Shown: positions 21,256 through 52,961 of the stretch, piece after piece
How positions within the stretch are numbered: the first letter of the stretch is position 1
Layout of the letters: each line of letters opens with the position of its first letter
Assembly: GCA_000004985.1 (NCBI GenBank)
Contig: GG738893.1
Direction: 5' to 3' (one strand)
From: Naegleria gruberi
Taxonomy: Eukaryota
Length of the DNA stretch: 64,000 bases
Notes under the pieces: generated by a model
Told to the model about the DNA's origin: nothing
What the model saw: only the letters and a program-made list of their open reading frames with translations
Databases searched by the model: none
Position numbers and translations under genes: made by a program

Positions 21256-24200
21256 ATGTTGGGCTCATCATCGATCTTCGGATCATCACCAAAGAGAAAG
21301 AGAGAAGAAAATGTGGTAGAGCAACAACAACAAGAACAAGATGCTGGCTCATCAGCATCACAACAAGTGGTTGATTCTATTTCTGCTGGCTTGGATGAAG
21401 AATCTTTGCAAATTGTTGAATATTTCGAGAAGAGAGATGCTGATCAACAAAAGTTAATTGATGAATTGACGAGGGAGATGGAAGAGTTGAATTTGGAAAA
21501 ATCGATGGAAACTTTTATGAGTAAATTGATGGGTAAATTGGTATTGGATGAATCCGATGATAAGAAAGCTTCTGCTGTTGCTGCTGTAGTGGATGACAAG
21601 AGATTAAAGCAAATCAAGCGTATGCAAGCTGATGAAAATATTGTGTTAAAAGTTGGTGGTAGATTATTCTATTCTACAATCAAGACACTTTCCGGAGAGG
21701 GACTTATTCTCGAGAATTCATCAGAAAAGCAACAAAATGATCAACCAGCTGATCTTGACAAGAAGAGTGACAATTTATTCAAAGTCATGTTTTCTTCTAC
21801 TTTTTCAATTCAATATGTAACTACTGAAAATGGTATCAAAGCAATTAATTTTGAAGATAGAAATCCAGATAACTTTGAATATATACTTGAACATTTGAGA
21901 GCGAATGGACGAGTTAAATGTTTAGGCTTGGAAGAATTGAGTTTTGAAAAGTTAACAGGTATCCAAGAGGAATCTCAATTTTTCCTCACTGACAAATTAA
22001 CAAACTATATTGACAAGCTTTTGTTAAAGAAACAAGAAAACCTTATTGCGGAAAGTATGATATCTGTACCACAATCCTCTACTGCTATTTCCCAATCTGC
22101 TAAATCCACTATTGATGCACCAATTCCAATTAAAACCAGTTTACCAGTTGAGTGGTTGGAACAATTCAAAAAGTTTGACCTATCCAACAAGGAAAGAATG
22201 TTCGAATTAATTGATACTACCAAAGCTCAAATTAATTTAACAAAGCAACAAATCATTGACTTTTCCAACTCCCTCAGAGATAAATTGGTGCAGTTTATGG
22301 ATGGTGGTGAAAACAATGAAAGTGATTTGAACATCAAGTTGGATGTTTCAGGTACTTGTTTTAACATTCCATTCAAAATTTTCAAGGTACACAAAGAATT
22401 TATTGTGTACGACTTTATCCTTTCTGAAAACTTTGCATTAACTTCAAAGGGAACAATTTTTATTGATAGAAATCCAGAACTATTCCAAATTATCTATAGT
22501 TATCTCATCAGTGGAAATTTCAACAATTTCCCTTTATTGACACCATCCAATAAGAAGCGTTTGAAACACGAGGCTCAATTCTATAGACTTAACAAGTTTA
22601 TCAATGAATATTTTGACGAATGTAGATACCCTGTTGAAACTATTGGTACTGAAAATATCAAGATTAAAGAGCAAGAAGACTATCTAAGAGAGTTATTCGT
22701 TAAGGATAGAAGTAATCCAATATTGGAAGATAAGTATTTGTTGTTGGCACCTATTTTTGCCCTGAGACATCAAATTGATGGATTAGCCAAAGACAAGTAC
22801 AAAATTCCTAACTGTCCAAAATTACTTAACTTTTGTGAAGCACCAAGCTATTCAAGATATGTCTCAGAGCCTGTTATGGTTAAATCCCTTGAATATTTCA
22901 AATCTTCATGGAAGTTTGCTACATCTGGTTTATTAGAAGGTCTTGATTGGAATAATGTATTTGCTGCAGGTGGTATGGTTCTTGGTTGTTTATTAGAGGG
23001 AAATAATGCTAAATCTTACAAAAAATTTATTTCTACAAGGTATGGTAACCAAAATGATAAATCGAAGCCAACTCTCAGAGAAAAGCAAGACAGTGACGAT
23101 GAGGAAGAAGGTTTTGAAGAACCAACTGTTGCTCAAGTCACTCAAACAATTAAAGACACCATTGAGACACCCTCCTCAAGTGAATATATGAAATTACCGT
23201 ACAATTATCAATATTCAGACTACCAGTTTAATCAACTCAGAAATAGGAGCACAATGCCAACAACCTATCAACATCAACAACATACAAGTTTGTATGGAAC
23301 TCAAAGTATTTTTGGTGCAGTTCAACAAACACCAGCAGCCTTTAGTATTTCAAGTCTTTTGTCAAGTAGCACCACATTGCCTCCAATGACAATGGGAATG
23401 CCACTTGCAATGACTATGCCTACTGCTACATATCCAATGCCTACTTTGGGAATGACTATGCCTACTGCCACACCTCCAATGACAATAGGAATGCCACTTA
23501 CAATGACTATGCCTACTGCAACACCCTCCTCCTCCCTCTTTGGTTCTACAGTTGACTCTCCATCAGCTCCTTTATCTACTCCTCCAACTGAATTCCAAGA
23601 TTCAGATATCGATCTTTTCCTGTATGCATTGACTCCTGAACAAGCTGAAGACAAACTCCGTCATATCTATCAAGTTATTAAGAATAATTCTGGAAAGGAT
23701 ATTCTTGTTGTAAGAACTCAATTTACTGTAACATTCTACGCCCAAAAAATTATTCAAGTTGTTTTAAGGTTGTACAAATCTCCAGCTGAAATATTATTAG
23801 GTTTTGATATTTGTGCTGCTTGGTAAGTATTATATTTTAGTTGTACTAGTTTTTAACTTTTCTAGTGTGGGTTATGATGGTTCTCAAGTATGGTCGAATG
23901 CTAGAGCAAGAAGAGCTTTAGCACAACAAACCAATCTCATAGATCCAGACAGAATGTCCACTTCTTATGAAGCCAGACTTTACAAGGTATGTAACGAATA
24001 TCAAACCAAAATTAATTTTCAAATAGTATGCTCGTCGTGGATTCTCAGTCTCTGTTCCTGGTTATGATCCTGGAAAAATCAAAAATCACTTCCTAATGTT
24101 CCCTAGAACATACAGATCACAACATATTGACGTTCATGGTCTGGCAAAAATATTACTGATGGATTACGCTAACAAATCACCAAAAACATCTTACATCCTC

Positions 24201-24953
24201 TCTGAATTTGAGCGTAATAAGGCATTGGAAAAACAAATTGCAAGAGAAAGGTTATTGAAATATTTCGACAAGGATTTCAAATCAGACTATGATGACATTC
24301 CAGTGTATCGTTTATCTAACATCTTTTTTGGAAACGAAAATCAAGGACAATATTTATTTCAAAGGTTCTCCAGAAGGGTTGAATTGTTCCAAAAAATTTC
24401 CAAAATTCCAAACTGGAAACCATACTATATATTTGCTTTAAATGATGTTGAAACAATTATTAATGATACATCCAACTCTTCTAATTTAAGTGAAAAGATT
24501 CAATGGATACAAATCAACCCAGGTTCCCAAAAAATTGGAAGTTTCAAACCTGTAATGTCAAACTTTTATAGTGACGCCTATAATTATGCTACTACTTTAC
24601 AGCCAAATAAGACAAGAAAAAAGAGAGTGGGTAAACAAACATACACAGCCATCTGGAGTTGGGAAAAGAATATTTCAGCACATACCTATGAAAACTATAG
24701 TATGCTTATTTCTAACAAGATTGAATTAGCCTATAGAAAGTATTGTGATTCCACAAGCTACCTAACATCCTCAACCGCTCCAACAACAGTACCAATTATG
24801 GATAATTATCATATTGACTTTACATGCATGCAACAAATTAATAGTTCTGATCCAACCAGAAGAAGAAAAGTCCAAAGACAAGCTCCAATTACTTATACCT
24901 CAACTTTTGAGGATGTGCCTGTCAGAGAACTTTCAAGCAAAACTTATTATTAA
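21256..24953 (+). CDS. Double BTB/POZ (T1/KCTD-type) domain protein with MTMPTAT-type tandem repeat and conserved C-terminal domain; join(21256..23822,23866..23986,24027..24953), ~1200 aa
   Basis: Two T1-type BTB domains: ...IVLKVGGRLFYSTIKTLS...FEDRNPDNFEYILEHLR... and ...IKLDVSGTCFNIPFKIFK...IFIDRNPELFQIIYSYLISG.... Introns of 43 and 40 nt (GTAAGT...TCTAG and GTATGT...AAATAG) join ...ICAA|CVGYDGSQVWSNARARRALAQQ...EARLYK|YARRGFSVSVPGYDPGK... in frame with ORF 24096..24953. Confidence 0.55.
23378..23525 (+). repeat. In-frame tandem coding repeat (~51-nt unit x ~3) encoding MGMPLAMTMPTATYPMPTLGMTMPTATPPMTIGMPLTMTMPTATP
   Basis: Near-identical units (cctccaatgacaat[ag]ggaatgccactt[ga]caatgactatgcctactgc[ta]aca) are visible directly in the sequence. 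Confidence 0.7.
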
Positions 24954-25039: not shown

Positions 25040-26353
25040 ATGCTTTCACCACACAACAACAATAAACCCTTCCAACAAAAAATTATTTCATTCATAGGAG
25101 ATGTACATTCGGGAAAAACAACACTTGTGGGTCGATTTGCTGATCCAGCTGAGAGACAAATTGCAAAGAATATGTTGGCATATCAGACCGATCGATTGGG
25201 AGCTTACAGAGTGTATGCATCTCATGTTTCCTCTCCTGAGCGAGAAGGGAGAATTAAAATTGCAATAACTCATAAACAATATAAAGAGGAAAATCAATTA
25301 ATGTCCCTATTGGATGTATCTACATCACGGAAGAAGAAAATGGACTGTTTGATGAAGGCTATTTGGCTGTCAAATATTTGTGTATTGGTTGTGGATGTAA
25401 CGGATGGAGTATTTGAAAGGGATTTTAATAATCCAATTGGAAATATAAGAACTCACTTACAAATGGCTGGAGCTGTTGGATTGACCAATTTGATTGTTTG
25501 TTTAACAAAATGTGATTTATTGCCAGAGTCTGAATTGAATTCAAGATTGGAGGAAATCAAATCAAAATTGAGTACTTTTTTATTGTGGAAAAATGTTCCT
25601 TTCATTCCAGTTTCATGTGTAAAGAATGAAAATATATTCACACCAATTGGTGATGAGTTTTCACAAGGAAAGTCACTCGAGTCTGTATTGAAAGAAATTA
25701 ATATTGAGCCACGGAAGGAATGGATTGAAAAACCTCTAATGATGGCTATATTGGACAAGTACAAAATTGCTGGCGTTGGAACAGTGGTGGCTGGAAAAAT
25801 AATTACTGGCAGAGTTCAAGTAGATCAACAAGTTTATTACAGAGATGATTATTCAAACCCATTGAGATCTATTGAAATTGCATTCGAGCCACGTAATGAA
25901 GCTATCTGTGGAGAATTTTGTGGAATCAATATCAAACATGTATCTGCGAGAGAGATTGAATCCCATTTCATAGTTCACGATCAGGCATACTTGGAGACTG
26001 AAAAACGAGCTGTGGAATCCTTCAGAGCCCTAATCAAGATTATGAATCAACCAAAGAATGGAATTAAGGTTGGATATACTTTCAAACTTTATCATTCTGT
26101 GACTAATCAATGTATTTGTAAAATAGAAGATATTATAGCCACTGTAAATCCAAAAACCAATAAGAAAATAGAAGCATATCCAAACAAACTCAAAAAAGGA
26201 GACTTTGTAGAAGTAAGATTACGACCAGTCATATCAAAAGAATCCAAAACTTGTTACCTGGAAACATTTGAACGAAATGAAACTCTTGGACGAATCATCT
26301 TAATGAATGGAAAGTTAATAATTGGAGTTGGAAAGGTATTAAAAATAAATTAA
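25040..26353 (+). CDS. EF1A/HBS1/eRF3-family translational GTPase paralogue with degenerate G3/G4 motifs (437 aa, intronless)
   Basis: Three-domain EF-Tu architecture: G1 is GDVHSGKTT; domain II is KPLMMAILDKYKIAGVGTVVAGKIITGRV; domain III is GRIILMNGKLIIGVGKVLKI. The DxxGH switch II reads LLDVSTSRK, so both Gly and the catalytic His are absent. NKxD reads TKCD. Confidence 0.7.
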   Translation: MLSPHNNNKPFQQKIISFIGDVHSGKTTLVGRFADPAERQIAKNMLAYQTDRLGAYRVYASHVSSPEREGRIKIAITHKQYKEENQLMSLLDVSTSRKKKMDCLMKAIWLSNICVLVVDVTDGVFERDFNNPIGNIRTHLQMAGAVGLTNLIVCLTKCDLLPESELNSRLEEIKSKLSTFLLWKNVPFIPVSCVKNENIFTPIGDEFSQGKSLESVLKEINIEPRKEWIEKPLMMAILDKYKIAGVGTVVAGKIITGRVQVDQQVYYRDDYSNPLRSIEIAFEPRNEAICGEFCGINIKHVSAREIESHFIVHDQAYLETEKRAVESFRALIKIMNQPKNGIKVGYTFKLYHSVTNQCICKIEDIIATVNPKTNKKIEAYPNKLKKGDFVEVRLRPVISKESKTCYLETFERNETLGRIILMNGKLIIGVGKVLKIN

Positions 26354-26385: not shown

Positions 26386-27435
26386 TCAATTAGAATTAGG
26401 TGAATGTTCACCCTTTGCTAGTTCCATTAAAAATTGTTGAGATTTGAAATGTTTTGGATCTATTTCTAGAATCTTATTGAGGAAATGTATTGACCTTTCT
26501 CTCAACTCATTTGAACCTGTTTCAGTGTACCTGATATAGTATGCCTGAGCTACTGCATAAATAATATTCACATCGCTATCACATTCAATAAGAGAGTCCT
26601 CTAGATCTTTAAATCCCAATTCAAAATTTTCCAATGCACAATAACAAAGACCTCTATTCATGTAGGCCATAGATCTATTCTCATTATCATTCAAAATACT
26701 ATCTGGATTTGTACCATCTCGATATTCATTGATAAGTCTTGAAAAATCCTGAATGGCTAGCTCAGGTTCATCCAAAGATACATGACTCATTCCTTTGAAA
26801 AAGTAATTGTCGCTTGCATTTAAAATATCAGAATATTCAGTTGTACCTTCTAATTCTTGAATAGATTTCGTATAGTATTGAATGGCCTCTCTATACTTTC
26901 CTTTTTGATAATACAAGCCAGCTATTAAACTATTTCCAAGAATGTGGTTTGGAATGTTTTTAAATTGAGAAGCTTTCCTCCAATATTCCATTGCTTCTTC
27001 GCTATTTAAATAATTATTTCGTCCAGCCCCAATCAATGCCATAACATAACATTCCTGATATGAAGACATTGCTCTTCTCGTTTCATCAAGTGAATTTTCA
27101 TAGAATCGAATAATTATTTGATACTCATGAAAGGCACCCCGCCGATCATTCAAACGTTCATAACAATTGGCAACACGTAATATCACAACCAGTGAAATAC
27201 AAGCTTCTTTTGCTTGTAAAAAGAATTTCAGAGCTTCTTCATAATTCTTGTTGGCAAATGCTAATGCTCCTTTATCGGAAAGTTCAGTGGCTGCTTTCTT
27301 GTCGAAAGTGGAGAAAGATACTTTGGAGATTAATGAAATTCTATTGGAAAATGTCTTGTTCGATTTAATATTCGAACCGAGAAGAGAAAATTTGAAAAAT
27401 TTAACAGAATTTCTGTGAAATACAAGTAAAGACAT
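26386..27435 (-). CDS. TPR repeat protein (349 aa)
   Basis: Single ORF with ATG at 27435 and repeated TPR-like helices (...ALAFANKNYEEALKFFLQAKE..., ...AGLYYQKGKYREAIQYYTKSIQ..., ...GLCYCALENFELGFKDLEDSL...). Confidence 0.6.
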   Translation of the reverse strand: MSLLVFHRNSVKFFKFSLLGSNIKSNKTFSNRISLISKVSFSTFDKKAATELSDKGALAFANKNYEEALKFFLQAKEACISLVVILRVANCYERLNDRRGAFHEYQIIIRFYENSLDETRRAMSSYQECYVMALIGAGRNNYLNSEEAMEYWRKASQFKNIPNHILGNSLIAGLYYQKGKYREAIQYYTKSIQELEGTTEYSDILNASDNYFFKGMSHVSLDEPELAIQDFSRLINEYRDGTNPDSILNDNENRSMAYMNRGLCYCALENFELGFKDLEDSLIECDSDVNIIYAVAQAYYIRYTETGSNELRERSIHFLNKILEIDPKHFKSQQFLMELAKGEHSPNSN

Positions 27436-27563: not shown

Positions 27564-28892
27564 TTATTCTTCTAAAACAACAGTTTCATTAGCTGTTTCG
27601 TGATTTTTGCTGTGTTCTTCATTGAATACCATTTGCTTCTCAATAAGAGATTTGTAAATACCGTTTGGTAGTCTAATTAACTCTGAATGGTTACCTTTCT
27701 CTTCCAAAACACCTTTAACCAAAACACAAATGATATCTGAATTGATAATAGTTGTCAGTCTATGAGCAATACATATAGTAGTACGACCTTTCATCAGAAC
27801 ATCCAATGCTTGCTGAACCAATCTTTCAGATTCACTATCCAATGCAGAAGTTGCCTCATCTAATAAGAGAACTTTTGGGTTTTGCAAAAGAGCACGTGCA
27901 ATGGCAATACGTTGCTTTTGTCCACCAGATAAGGAAACACGCATAAACTTGGAATACTGATCCCATGGTGGCCTTTCCCTCAGCAACAGTTGTGCCACCA
28001 TACAGGAAACCCAATGTTACTGTTGCCCATGTAAGTCCAGCAGTAAAGGCAAGAAAAGGTCCATGAACAGACCCCTTAAAAACACCCTGCCTGTTAATCT
28101 TGTCCAAATCTTTTTGGAATCGATTCAATTCTGAATATTCTTGTGCCATGGAGCGAATAGTTTTCATTGAAGAAATGATTTCATTGGATACAGCAGAAGA
28201 ATTTTCAGTCAACTTGTTAATCCTCTTTGTAATAATTGTAGAGATTGTGGACATTACCATATGGGAAATAAAGGTCAAGGGTATCGTTGAGACTAGAATC
28301 AAAGACATCGTCCAATTAATGGTCAAAGAAATAACAAACCCAATCACAAACTGACTCAAGTCCTGGCAAAATATAGAGAGGTCTGTAGTGTAGACTTCTT
28401 GAATTTTTCCAATATCCTCAGAAAGAATGGATGTGATAGCTCCAATCTTTTTAATGTCAAAGAAACTCATCTCCTGTTTGGAGAGGGCATGCATGTATGC
28501 TTTTCTGAGAGATGTTCCTATTCTTGCATGTGATATTTGCAAGAAGAAATCCTGTAACAAGAATGCAACAGCACTACATGCTGATAGAATTCCCAACTTG
28601 ATGCAAACCTGTGAAACAACAAACTTGCCTTCCTCCACAGATTTGGCTCCAGCCAAGCTGTCAATTAATTCACCTAACATAACAATTAACATTCACATGT
28701 AAATGTAACCAACATACCTATGAAGACATTACACAGAATGGGGATTACACCATACCCAACAGCCCCAAGAATTCCAAACAACAGCAACAACAAGTTTCCA
28801 CCAAAAATTTGTAAAATTTTAAAGTGTGATAATGGAGAAACCTGTGGCTCTCGTTCATCCTTAAATTCAAATTCGTCTTCTTTTGGAGGCAT
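27564..28892 (-). pseudogene. ABC transporter B-family half-transporter (TMD-NBD) with internal deletion removing TM6 end, Walker A and Q-loop; complement(join(27564..28673,28718..28892))
   Basis: N-terminus MPPKEDEFEF...ILQIFGG...VFIG|ELIDSLAGAK..., spliced across a 44-nt intron (28674..28717, GTATGT...TTAG). The TMD runs through ...[34 protein letters not shown]. The frame that then gives ...[35 protein letters not shown]...TICIAHRL... (signature, Walker B, H-loop) overlaps this within ~10 nt. No Walker A (GxxGxGKS/T) is encoded anywhere between 27564 and 28892. Confidence 0.5.
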
Positions 28893-48219: not shown

Positions 48220-49367
48220 NNNNNNNNNNNNNNNNNNNNNNNNNNNNNNNNNNNNNNNNNNNNNNNNNNNNNNNNNNNNNNNNNNNNNNNNNNNNNNNNN
48301 NNNNNNNNNNNNNNNNNNNNNNNNNNNNNNNNNNNNNNNNNNNNNNNNNNNNNNNNNNNNNNNNNNNNNNNNNNNNNNNNNNNNNNNNNNNNNNNNNNNN
48401 NNNNNNNNNNNNNNNNNNNNNNNNNNNNNNNNNNNNNNNNNNNNNNNNNNNNNNNNNNNNNNNNNNNNNNNNNNNNNNNNNNNNNNNNNNNNNNNNNNNN
48501 NNNNNNNNNNNNNNNNNNNNNNNNNNNNNNNNNNNNNNNNNNNNNNNNNNNNNNNNNNNNNNNNNNNNNNNNNNNNNNNNNNNNNNNNNNNNNNNNNNNN
48601 NNNNNNNNNNNNNNNNNNNNNNNNNNNNNNNNNNNNNNNNNNNNNNNNNNNNNNNNNNNNNNNNNNNNNNNNNNNNNNNNNNNNNNNNNNNNNNNNNNNN
48701 NNNNNNNNNNNNNNNNNNNNNNNNNNNNNNNNNNNNNNNNNNNNNNNNNNNNNNNNNNNNNNNNNNNNNNNNNNNNNNNNNNNNNNNNNNNNNNNNNNNN
48801 NNNNNNNNNNNNNNNNNNNNNNNNNNNNNNNNNNNNNNNNNNNNNNNNNNNNNNNNNNNNNNNNNNNNNNNNNNNNNNNNNNNNNNNNNNNNNNNNNNNN
48901 NNNNNNNNNNNNNNNNNNNNNNNNNNNNNNNNNNNNNNNNNNNNNNNNNNNNNNNNNNNNNNNNNNNNNNNNNNNNNNNNNNNNNNNNNNNNNNNNNNNN
49001 NNNNNNNNNNNNNNNNNNNNNNNNNNNNNNNNNNNNNNNNNNNNNNNNNNNNNNNNNNNNNNNNNNNNNNNNNNNNNNNNNNNNNNNNNNNNNNNNNNNN
49101 NNNNNNNNNNNNNNNNNNNNNNNNNNNNNNNNNNNNNNNNNNNNNACTAAGAAAACAAACACTTCTGATTTGAATTCAAATGTTTTAGGAACAAAATCAA
49201 ATCATTTCAAAGTTAAACTCATATCTAATTGTAATAGTTTAATGATTGGATTTGCACCTAAAAGTATTAATGTGAACGAAACAAATAATAATACAAAATG
49301 TGGATATTATTTATATACTACTACTGGAACCATTTATTCTCAGAATGGAGAATCAAACAAAAGCTAA
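47973..49367 (+). CDS. Coiled-coil / SPRY(B30.2)-like protein gene interrupted by assembly gap (5' part 47973..48219, 3' part 49146..49367)
   Basis: 5' part: MTKKKTGIMTNNAPPSSSQIKQQVQDTKNQTSLLKKQLDSIVQQYEQQLANLEKLETALNEKDEQVKSREIQVAQREQSVKD (coiled coil) runs into the N-run. After the gap an open frame gives ...FKVKLISNCNSLMIGFAPKSINVNETNNNTKCGYYLYTTTGTIYSQNGESNKS* (SPRY-like). Whether both parts belong to one gene is an inference. Confidence 0.35.
   Translation: MTKKKTGIMTNNAPPSSSQIKQQVQDTKNQTSLLKKQLDSIVQQYEQQLANLEKLETALNEKDEQVKSREIQVAQREQSVKDXXXXXXXXXXXXXXXXXXXXXXXXXXXXXXXXXXXXXXXXXXXXXXXXXXXXXXXXXXXXXXXXXXXXXXXXXXXXXXXXXXXXXXXXXXXXXXXXXXXXXXXXXXXXXXXXXXXXXXXXXXXXXXXXXXXXXXXXXXXXXXXXXXXXXXXXXXXXXXXXXXXXXXXXXXXXXXXXXXXXXXXXXXXXXXXXXXXXXXXXXXXXXXXXXXXXXXXXXXXXXXXXXXXXXXXXXXXXXXXXXXXXXXXXXXXXXXXXXXXXXXXXXXXXXXXXXXXXXXXXXXXXXXXXXXXXXXXXXXXXXXXXXXXXXTKKTNTSDLNSNVLGTKSNHFKVKLISNCNSLMIGFAPKSINVNETNNNTKCGYYLYTTTGTIYSQNGESNKS
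48220..49145. other. Assembly gap (926 N)
   Basis: Run of n. Confidence 1.
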
Positions 49368-49479: not shown

Positions 49480-50973
49480 TTACAGGTCATAAATATCTAC
49501 ATGATCTGCTAAATTCATTTCTCGAATGTATTTTTCACCCTCATCGCTTATATTGTTGTCAACTGCGTTAAGTCTTGTTAATTGCTTCATTCCACTTAGG
49601 GCTTTAACGCCTTCGTCACCAATTTCATTGTAACCTATATCTAGAAAAGTTAATTGTTCCATTTCACTTATAAATTTGGCTCCCTCATCTCCAACAGCAT
49701 TGTGATAGATAGAAAGCTGTGCTAGGTGCTTCATTTCACTGATTTGGTTTGCACTTTTCTCTCCAATATTATTATGAGCAATTATTAGATACGTTAAATT
49801 ATCCATTTTACAGATATATTGTATACCTATTGGTGTAATATCAATACTAGAAACATTAAGTTCAGTTAATTGGTTCATTTCACTTATAGATTGGACTCCG
49901 TTATCCCTAATTCGATTATCAGAAATGTCAAGCTTAATTAAATTTTTCATTTGGCTAATGTGAATAGCCCCGTACGGTGTAATCAAATTTTCAGCTATAG
50001 AAAGATGAGTTAATTGATTAAATGATGAAATGTATTTTGTTCCATCCAATCCAATACAACAACTGTTCACATTAAGATCTGTTAATTGTTTCATTTCTCC
50101 AAAACACTTAACACCGTCATTAATAGAATTAAACCCAATATCGAGTTTCCGTATATTCATCATTTCACTAACATACTTGGCACCGTTCTCGCCTATATTA
50201 TTACTAGCAATATCAAGATTAGTTAATTGTTTCATTCCACTAATAAATTTGGCTCCTTCGTCACAAATATTGTTGCCAACAATTTTAAGACCAGTCAACT
50301 GTTTCATTTCACTAATAAATTTTGCTCCATCCATAGTAATTTCATTGGCACGGATATTAAGAAAAGTCAACTGTTCAAGGCCACTAATATACTTGGCTCC
50401 TTCTGGGCCAATATTATTATTAGCAATATGAAGTTGTTTCAATTGCTTCATTTCACCAATATACTTGGCTCCTTCTACACCAATATAATTACCCGTAATA
50501 AGAAGATAAGTTAGTGATTTCAATGATGGTAAATGTTTAGCAATATCAAATCCAAAATAACAGAAAGTCATATAAAGATCAGTCAATTGTTCCAATGAAC
50601 ATATATACTTGAATCCACTTGGATCAATCTTAGAATTAAATTCTATATTGAGTTTTTTCAATTCTTTCATCGAATCCAATATCTCACAATTAAATCCACC
50701 TTCATTCTCTATCACTCTTAGATTTGCAACATTTTCCAAAAACGGCAATTGACCAACCATTTCCAAATCACTACTACGTGTTATCGAGAGGTGTTTACAT
50801 GAATTTTTAATGACATGAAACCACTGTTTGGAAACCAATGCACACCTCTGTACAATAAATTTAAAATCATCGTGAAAAGATAAAATTTCAAAGAGTGAAT
50901 CGTCAGAGAATAGATTATTTTCTTGTATTTTCGAAAATGAAGAAGTGATGGAATGTTTTGGTTGTGTGATCAT
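49480..50973 (-). CDS. F-box / leucine-rich-repeat protein (RNI-like 24-aa LRRs x ~16), 497 aa
   Basis: N-terminal F-box ...LFEILSFHDDFKFIVQRCALVSKQWFHVI.... Then repeated units of the form KQLTxLxIxxNxIGDEGAKYISEM (for example MKQLKQLHIANNNIGPEGAKYISG, MKQLTGLKIVGNNICDEGAKFISG). ATG at 50973. Confidence 0.7.
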   Translation of the reverse strand: MITQPKHSITSSFSKIQENNLFSDDSLFEILSFHDDFKFIVQRCALVSKQWFHVIKNSCKHLSITRSSDLEMVGQLPFLENVANLRVIENEGGFNCEILDSMKELKKLNIEFNSKIDPSGFKYICSLEQLTDLYMTFCYFGFDIAKHLPSLKSLTYLLITGNYIGVEGAKYIGEMKQLKQLHIANNNIGPEGAKYISGLEQLTFLNIRANEITMDGAKFISEMKQLTGLKIVGNNICDEGAKFISGMKQLTNLDIASNNIGENGAKYVSEMMNIRKLDIGFNSINDGVKCFGEMKQLTDLNVNSCCIGLDGTKYISSFNQLTHLSIAENLITPYGAIHISQMKNLIKLDISDNRIRDNGVQSISEMNQLTELNVSSIDITPIGIQYICKMDNLTYLIIAHNNIGEKSANQISEMKHLAQLSIYHNAVGDEGAKFISEMEQLTFLDIGYNEIGDEGVKALSGMKQLTRLNAVDNNISDEGEKYIREMNLADHVDIYDL

Positions 50974-51419: not shown

Positions 51420-51469
51420 NNNNNNNNNNNNNNNNNNNNNNNNNNNNNNNNNNNNNNNNNNNNNNNNNN
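51420..51469. other. Assembly gap (50 N)
   Basis: Run of n. Confidence 1.
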
Positions 51470-52723: not shown

Positions 52724-52961
52724 NNNNNNNNNNNNNNNNNNNNNNNNNNNNNNNNNNNNNNNNNNNNNNNNNNNNNNNNNNNNNNNNNNNNNNNNNNNNN
52801 NNNNNNNNNNNNNNNNNNNNNNNNNNNNNNNNNNNNNNNNNNNNNNNNNNNNNNNNNNNNNNNNNNNNNNNNNNNNNNNNNNNNNNNNNNNNNNNNNNNN
52901 NNNNNNNNNNNNNNNNNNNNNNNNNNNNNNNNNNNNNNNNNNNNNNNNNNNNNNNNNNNNN
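52724..52961. other. Assembly gap (238 N)
   Basis: Run of n. Confidence 1.

Follow-up and report, generated by a model that had tools for sequence, protein, structure and literature searches.

An EF1A-derived paralogue of Naegleria gruberi with conserved loss of its switch and catalytic motifs: a probable nucleotide-binding pseudo-GTPase

A 64,000-nucleotide stretch of the Naegleria gruberi genome (contig GG738893.1 of assembly GCA_000004985.1; hereafter the window) was analyzed for an EF1A-like gene at 25040..26353 on the + strand, which corresponds to NAEGRDRAFT_71823 / D2VS60. The gene is a complete intron-less coding sequence (CDS) that runs from ATG to TAA through 437 codons without interruption, and in-frame stops lie shortly upstream. 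Its product is best explained as a functional, Naegleria-specific pseudo-GTPase derived from EF1A, which probably binds a nucleotide and neither hydrolyses it nor switches. The nucleotide-binding motifs are retained in all five members of a Naegleria clade, the switch and catalytic residues are lost in all five, and the genes are conserved as protein-coding sequences. All features of the gene given below are on the + strand.

The GTPase motifs were taken from the sequence and from a HMMER alignment to 3wy9. The G1 motif, or P-loop, is GDVHSGKT (residues 20-27; 25097..25120) and keeps GxxxxGK[ST] intact. The switch I remnant reads GRIKI (residues 70-74; 25247..25261) in place of the canonical RGITI, and the Thr that binds the gamma-phosphate and Mg is Lys72. 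The G3 or switch II remnant reads DVSTS in place of DAPGH (residues 92-96; 25313..25327) and is followed by RKKKMDC. G4 is TKCD at the position of the canonical NKxD (residues 156-159; 25505..25516), and the G5 equivalent is VSC (residues 191-193; 25610..25618) inside FIPVSC, where the canonical SA/SG reads SC (residues 192-193). The original prediction, made from the letters of the window, had described DVSTS as a DxxGH motif without its Gly and catalytic His, and this was confirmed; the loss of the switch I Thr had been overlooked. GTP hydrolysis stimulated by the ribosome requires His84 of EF-Tu (Daviter 2003, as quoted in PMC4509514), and the Thr of switch I and the Gly of DxxG are presented as universal gamma-phosphate "loaded-spring" sensors (Wittinghofer and Vetter 2011, as quoted in PMC4509514).

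The same prediction had read G4 correctly as TKCD and called it degenerate. Only the reading stands. Lys157 and Asp159 are intact, orthologues carry NKCD, and TKMD is the G4 of otherwise canonical relatives (e.g., P0003); therefore TKCD is, judged by these residues, not a degenerate G4. The G4 of Rac1 is TKLD.

Relatives were gathered by scanning 1.84 billion representatives exhaustively with HMMER, by cluster look-ups and by one further search. The window gene and four relatives form a clade that, as far as these searches reach, is confined to Naegleria, and when the clade alignment was used for a word-indexed profile search, no additional members outside the genus were gained. The second N. 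gruberi gene, D2VSA7 (NAEGRDRAFT_71873), is 73% identical to the window gene and lies on the same 337-kb scaffold; its full-length form (P0008) was recovered from an independently assembled metagenome contig (L001). N. lovaniensis C9374_011189 (P0011, gene A) is about 32% identical and N. fowleri FDP41_000494 (P0158, gene B) is 36% identical. N. lovaniensis C9374_001949 (P0186, gene B, locus L005) is orthologous to the N. fowleri gene, and the two share 68% identity across the three domains.

The motif states recur in this clade. In the order N. gruberi 2, N. lovaniensis A, N. fowleri B and N. lovaniensis B, G1 reads GAEKSGKT, GSARVGKS, GSEESGKS and GSPNSGKS, and G4 reads TKCD, NKCD, NKCD and NMCD. 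The switch II region is DVSTT-QKKKIDC, YVS-S-KKKKINC, NVS-T-KKRKLDC and DVS-T-RKKKIDC, which together with DVSTS-RKKKMDC of the window protein gives the clade signature [DNY]VS(T)x-KKK-x-[DN]C. The P-loop GxxxxGK[ST] and the G4 Asp are each kept in 5/5 members, and a Ser-containing G5 is found across the clade. No member (0/5) has the switch I Thr, the DxxG Gly or the catalytic His. The degenerate switch II is thus conserved in related species, in two genes of N. lovaniensis and one of N. fowleri. Orthologues with a canonical DxxGH would have implied a sequencing error; with no such motif in any clade member, that error is excluded.

The extent of the loss was measured against 35 canonical a/eEF1A, eRF3 and Hbs1 sequences, whose group labels were checked against the PDB, with a clade alignment of the four members other than P0186. 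Among 53 G-domain columns conserved in at least 90% of the canonical sequences, 24 are lost in all four members and 12 are kept in all four. Among those kept are the G/G/K/T of the P-loop and the NKxD Lys and Asp. The lost columns include the Gly and Thr of switch I, the A-P-G-H and the Asn of switch II, the His and Asp of the P-loop, and GQTREH. All four aligned members have Gly20, Gly25 and Lys26, as does P0186, read directly; Lys157, Cys158 and Asp159 are invariant in the four.

Outside the altered motifs, the fold is that of EF1A. Pfam finds three EF1A-type domains (G, beta-barrel domain 2 and domain 3) in the canonical order: GTP_EFTU at residues 15-200 (E 9e-18), GTP_EFTU_D2 at residues 247-305 (28.6 bits, slightly below the 30.3-bit cut-off) and GTP-eEF1A_C at residues 327-433 (E 1.4e-17). 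NCBIfam EF-1 alpha models align with residues 16-436 (E 1e-45 to 1e-47) and score 156-163 bits, far under their equivalog cut-offs of 502-540. The top PDB sequence match is archaeal aEF1A, over the full length (E 8e-36), followed by yeast and mammalian eEF1A (about 1e-26), eRF3a (5e-21), Hbs1L (4e-20), yeast Hbs1 (about 1e-16 to 1e-18) and EF-Tu (1e-14). An AlphaFold2 (AF2) model built from a 66-sequence alignment reached a mean predicted local confidence (pLDDT) of 87 and a predicted template-modelling score (pTM) of 0.88, with low confidence at residues 48-71, the switch I region. In Foldseek, this model matched aEF1A-GTP-Pelota and ribosome-bound eEF1A with template-modelling (TM) scores of 0.83-0.84 and open GDP forms with 0.44; in these alignments, the window protein is 23-28% identical to solved a/eEF1A structures. 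The complete three-domain fold that had been proposed from the sequence is therefore upheld by the Pfam order, the full-length PDB and NCBIfam alignments and the model (TM up to 0.84).

From these data, the G domain spans about residues 12-225 (25073..25714), with a start set by the similarity to the paralogue, which begins at nucleotide 25073/25074, and with support from Pfam and the AF2 model. Domain 2, the beta-barrel, spans about residues 231-325 (25730..26014; Pfam and AF2) and includes GVGTVVAGKIITG. Domain 3 spans about residues 327-437 (26018..26350; Pfam and AF2) and is the most constrained part of the protein.

Selection was estimated as the ratio of nonsynonymous to synonymous substitution rates (dN/dS) by the method of Nei and Gojobori (NG86). 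Between the window gene and its N. gruberi paralogue, dN/dS was 0.26 (95% confidence interval, CI, 0.19-0.36) at a dS of 0.60. Along this pair, the ratio was 0.42 (CI 0.21-0.76) for residues 12-100 and 0.37 for residues 101-225 of the G domain, 0.25 for domain 2, and 0.11 (95% CI 0.05-0.21) for domain 3. The N. fowleri and N. lovaniensis orthologues (P0158/P0186) gave 0.18 (CI 0.13-0.24), at a dS of about 1.2 that is near saturation. By these estimates, the window gene is under purifying selection, most strongly on domain 3.

These values also bear on whether the gene is a decaying duplicate, or whether its motif changes are errors of sequencing or assembly. The public models of clade genes are fragmentary (337, 393 and 312 aa, and an 898-aa fusion), which could suggest poor loci. 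However, the 437-codon ORF (open reading frame) is intact, the motif states are repeated in the independently assembled metagenome paralogue and in three genes of two other species, and the N-terminal 100 codons are themselves constrained. Because the CIs of both whole-gene ratios exclude 1, the pseudogene reading is rejected, and decay or error as an explanation is effectively refuted. The pseudo-GTPase category, which had been offered as a second possibility for this gene, fits the data: the G-domain fold is present, the motifs for switching and catalysis are lost, including the catalytic His and the DxxG Gly, paralogues and orthologues share this loss, and selection is purifying.

The public models of the clade genes are defective. 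D2VS60 (XP_002673029.1, N. gruberi, 337 aa) is 100% identical to the window ORF and begins at its Met101, so that the P-loop is left out. The missing N-terminal part aligns with the paralogue and the orthologues, and codons 12-100 have the dN/dS of 0.42 given above; on this evidence, the N-terminus absent from D2VS60 is genuine coding sequence. Both N. gruberi models, D2VS60 and the 393-aa D2VSA7, lack the P-loop-bearing N-terminus (window 25040-25339; L001 462-1832). The N. lovaniensis model C9374_001949 (312 aa) ends inside domain 2, with domains 2-3 encoded downstream (L005 6001-7420), and the N. fowleri model FDP41_000494 (898 aa) fuses an upstream glycosyltransferase to the EF1A-like gene (L003 6508-9486). 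Four public models of clade genes are thus wrong, either truncated or fused, and the P-loop has been hidden as a result.

Under the reading that we favour, guanine nucleotide would be bound as a fixed structural cofactor, with no ribosome-activated hydrolysis and no domain rearrangement between GTP and GDP states. The protein would then act as a static EF1A-shaped module that holds a partner through domains 2 and 3 and through the remodelled, Lys-rich switch II face. Candidate partners are RNA, proteins that resemble a tRNA or eRF1/Pelota, and the cytoskeletal or other partners that eEF1A has in its moonlighting roles; the role of the protein would be other than that of a decoding factor that delivers and releases its cargo. 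Within the large, lineage-specific expansion that divergent EF1A-like genes have undergone in Naegleria, the clade would represent one branch.

Several points weigh against this reading. The binding of GTP or another guanine nucleotide is probable solely from the conservation of G1 and G4, and the G4 of one member (P0186) is NMCD. The DxxG Asp, which helps to hold Mg2+, varies across the clade (D/D/Y/N/D). The putative aminoacyl-pocket Asp of domain 2 varies as well (D/Q/N/D), which argues against delivery of aminoacyl-tRNA and leaves a tRNA-like cargo unsupported. Some GTPases without the canonical catalytic residue (HAS-GTPases) hydrolyse GTP by other routes. The compact, GTP-like conformation of the AF2 model is weak evidence, as it may merely reflect model bias, and the dS of the N. 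fowleri and N. lovaniensis pair approaches saturation. A search for biochemical, expression and proteomic data on the window gene came back empty; for expression and proteome data, the locus tag and accession of NAEGRDRAFT_71823 were sought in full-text literature and in Naegleria omics supplements, and nothing was found.

The same losses would be expected of a nucleotide-free scaffold (class I pseudo-GTPase) in which the P-loop and NKxD residues are kept for structure alone. The ligands of Mg2+ and gamma-phosphate are missing (the Thr of switch I throughout, the DxxG Asp in 2/5), nearly half of the universally conserved G-domain positions (24/53) are lost, and the P-loop is missing from the sister paralogue D2VHV7, so that the wider family is drifting toward nucleotide-free forms. 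However, a P-loop kept in 5/5 members and a G4 Asp kept in 5/5, at an overall identity of 32-36%, are hard to explain without a ligand. We therefore regard a nucleotide-free scaffold as unlikely, though with a chance that is not negligible, and retain the nucleotide-bound, non-switching form as the probable one.

Regarding family, the protein has the domain order, the G1 and the [NT]KxD-type G4 of the EF1A/EF-Tu superfamily, and lacks the switch I Thr and the G3 DxxG plus His. It does not qualify as a canonical eEF1A, as its score is under the equivalog threshold and the domain 2 pocket Asp is variable in its clade. The eRF3-type C-terminal motif GRFTLRD reads LGRIILMNG, and the protein lacks the PABP-binding or prion-like stretch that precedes the G domain of eRF3. 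Subfamily profiles were small, and the eEF1A profile consisted mostly of plant-like sequences. With these profiles, whole-protein scores were poorly discriminating (aEF1A 144-181, eRF3 130-160, Hbs1 135-148 and eEF1A 104-150 bits), and G-domain scores were weak throughout (41-70 bits for the window protein, 39-74 across the clade). Domains 2-3 of the window protein scored 117 bits for aEF1A, 84 for eEF1A, 78 for eRF3 and 67 for Hbs1; the corresponding ranges were 62-67 bits for Hbs1 compared to 75-117 for aEF1A. Phylogeny was by neighbour-joining (NJ) only, which like the small profiles is crude; the clade was monophyletic in 189/200 NJ bootstraps, and its sister group consisted of three other degenerate EF1A-like sequences, not Hbs1 or eRF3.

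The original prediction had suggested a decoding-factor paralogue of the Hbs1/Ski7 type, and some data point to such an orthologue or functional analogue. The protein has Ser at the catalytic His position, as in Ser360 of S. cerevisiae Ski7 (PMC4509514), the G-domain profile taken by itself scores marginally higher for eRF3/Hbs1 than for a/eEF1A, and the AF2 model superposes on the aEF1A-GTP-Pelota and Hbs1L-Pelota complexes (TM 0.82-0.84). However, the N-terminal extension, which carries the ribosome, Ski-complex and exosome contacts in Hbs1 and Ski7, is absent: residue 20 is already the first of the P-loop, the paralogue aligns from codon 12 onward, and in-frame stops lie upstream. Furthermore, Ski7 has an ordered, active switch I/II (PMC4509514), whereas both gamma-phosphate sensors are lost in the window protein. 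Domains 2-3 score clearly as a/eEF1A, and the NJ clade lies apart from Hbs1 and eRF3. In the survey of Atkinson 2015 (PMC4342817), N. gruberi has 37 translational GTPases, including 12 eEF1A, 1 aEF1A, 9 eEF2, 1 eRF3 and 1 Hbs1. Since a single eRF3, a single Hbs1 and eEF1A-class sequences are recorded, the canonical factors coexist with the window gene. The lack of an extension, the a/eEF1A-like domains 2-3 and these separate factors indicate that the window gene is an EF1A-derived, genus-specific paralogue and not an orthologue of Hbs1, Ski7 or eRF3. An Hbs1/Ski7-type function, by descent or by analogy, is accordingly highly improbable, and that part of the prediction was not borne out.

The sister group consists of D2VHV7 (P0132, NAEGRDRAFT_49665), an additional N. 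gruberi paralogue that lacks even a P-loop, and two metagenomic sequences (P0025 and P0042). It is even more degenerate than the window clade, with no P-loop or GKG and a G4 that reads IVNISE or WENEN. As read from these motifs, the sister group indicates a graded series of motif loss inside the Naegleria or amoeba expansion. Among the wider matches (e.g., P0013, P0023, P0029, P0036 Anaeramoeba flamelloides, P0038 of the ciliate Halteria, and P0012 from a metagenome), many of the best are divergent protist EF1A-like proteins in which the His is replaced and the Gly is kept (DxPGR, DxPGA, DxPGL and the like). In one metagenomic protein of 1198 aa, a canonical EF1A lies C-terminal to a long unrelated N-terminal region.

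N. lovaniensis C9374_011189 is syntenic with N. gruberi paralogue 2 through a downstream WD40 (G-beta-like) gene. This neighbour is 86-90% identical between the two loci (L001 1953-3261 and N. lovaniensis L002 9876-11629) and the adjacent EF1A-like genes are about 32% identical; thus, the EF1A-like gene evolves fast relative to its neighbour. The loci of P0158 and P0186 share the order glycosyltransferase / EF1A-like / SCAR. In both N. fowleri (L003 6508-9486) and N. lovaniensis (L005 4361-7420), the EF1A-like gene is directly preceded, across a gap of about 35-100 bp, by a UDP-glycosyltransferase-like gene (EryCIII-like_C) in the same orientation, and the pair is a candidate for fusion, co-transcription or adjacency. 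The duplication that yielded the window gene was limited to the CDS, from nucleotide 25073/25074 to 26353. Co-duplication of its neighbours was considered and rejected, as similarity is restricted to the CDS. A second copy of the gene was sought within the window and none was found.

Fast evolution in an expanded family might also reflect genetic conflict, for example as an eEF1A decoy for bacterial or viral effectors in a bacterivorous amoeba. The 13 EF1A-like genes of N. gruberi form a large lineage-specific expansion (PMC4342817), genes at the same position diverge strongly compared to the adjacent WD40 gene, and the top matches include many divergent EF1A-like proteins from Anaeramoeba, Halteria and others. 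However, the pairwise dN/dS values are well under 1, direct evidence of positive selection was not obtained, and the WD40 neighbour is intrinsically slow-evolving, so that the rate is exaggerated by this comparison. At the position of eEF1A Ser53, the target of Legionella Lgt, the residue appears from reading the sequence to be Ala. The sequence thus gave no support to a decoy for Lgt, and we put the chance of a conflict-driven origin as very slim.

A broader proposal sees the DVST-type proteins as one part of a system, specific to Naegleria, in which "dead" mimics of translation factors, permanently loaded with nucleotide, regulate translation or act as decoys for effectors that target eEF1A. 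The 13 EF1A-like and 9 EF2-like genes of N. gruberi (PMC4342817) lie behind this idea, which we hold to be rather improbable. If it were true, the mimics would occupy ribosomes or tRNA-like or Pelota-like partners, for instance during the transitions between amoeba, flagellate and cyst, and the EF1A fold would have a new regulatory role for which no GTPase cycle is required.

Compared with canonical a/eEF1A, the window protein has the same three-domain architecture and length without extensions, its best sequence, profile and structure matches, and a P-loop, an NKxD-type G4 and the domain 2 motif 'GxGTVxxGK/R'. Unlike canonical a/eEF1A, it lacks the switch I Thr, the DxxG Gly, the catalytic His, the P-loop His/Asp and 'GQTREH'. 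The C-terminal domain of S. cerevisiae Ski7 resembles it in its origin from the EF1A/Hbs1 family and in the Ser that replaces the catalytic His, and Ski7 has been proposed to be a GTP-binding, non-cycling protein and a possible pseudo-translational GTPase (PMC4509514). In contrast to the window protein, Ski7 has functional switches in the active conformation around GTP and a long N-terminal adaptor region (PMC4509514). Ski7 and the window clade arose independently and are not orthologous.

The divergent EF-1alpha proteins of organisms that also have EFL (Kamikawa et al. 2013, PMC3699394) are likewise fast-evolving, with auxiliary roles proposed after they left elongation. In those organisms, EFL is the main elongation factor and each has one remodelled EF-1alpha, whereas Naegleria has no EFL listed and a multi-gene EF1A expansion that includes motif-dead copies (PMC4342817). 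By analogy, Ski7 may be taken as the nearest studied counterpart and the EF-1alpha genes of EFL organisms as a looser one. SEPT6 is similar to the window clade in that the nucleotide pocket is retained, a catalytic Thr is lost and the nucleotide is structural. The SEPT6-group septins and other nucleotide-bound pseudo-GTPases (PMC10731463) belong, however, to an unrelated GTPase family with another fold context and function.

Translational GTPases are among the most conserved proteins, and an EF1A fold that remains under selection after the loss of its whole switch and catalytic apparatus is rare. Ski7 is the main studied case, yet its switches are retained. The Naegleria clade is thus a natural experiment, an EF1A body without a GTPase cycle. 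The existence of divergent EF1A paralogues in N. gruberi, termed 'often highly divergent' in sequence, was already catalogued (PMC4342817), and they had previously gone unanalysed. That survey differs from the present analysis in that it did not treat individual genes, motif states, orthologues or selection. The window gene is very probably among its 12 'eEF1A' entries or its one 'aEF1A' entry, for which accessions are not individually listed there. The clade points to an expansion of EF1A- and EF2-like genes that is large and unstudied, in the genus to which the pathogen N. fowleri belongs.

In the window, the EF1A-like gene is flanked by a WWE-domain ORF at 24096-24953 (+), 87 bp upstream, and by a TPR-repeat ORF at 26386-27435 (-). 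Further upstream lies a BTB-domain ORF at 21256-23826 (+) with a repetitive Met/Pro/Thr-rich tract. The WWE, BTB and TPR neighbours were absent from the other loci checked (L001, L002 and L003); therefore, no functional linkage was drawn from gene context. The transmembrane and ATPase portions of an ABC transporter lie in two overlapping ORFs at 27564-28692 (-), which are probably one gene with an intron. Runs of N, which mark assembly gaps, occupy 48220-49145 (926 bases), 51420-51469 (50 bases) and 52724-52961 (238 bases), and the apparent GC troughs in the composition profile are due to them. An imperfect tandem repeat at 50160-50493 has a 72-bp period, 4.6 copies and 68% matches; as 72 is divisible by three, a repeat in a protein may be encoded here.

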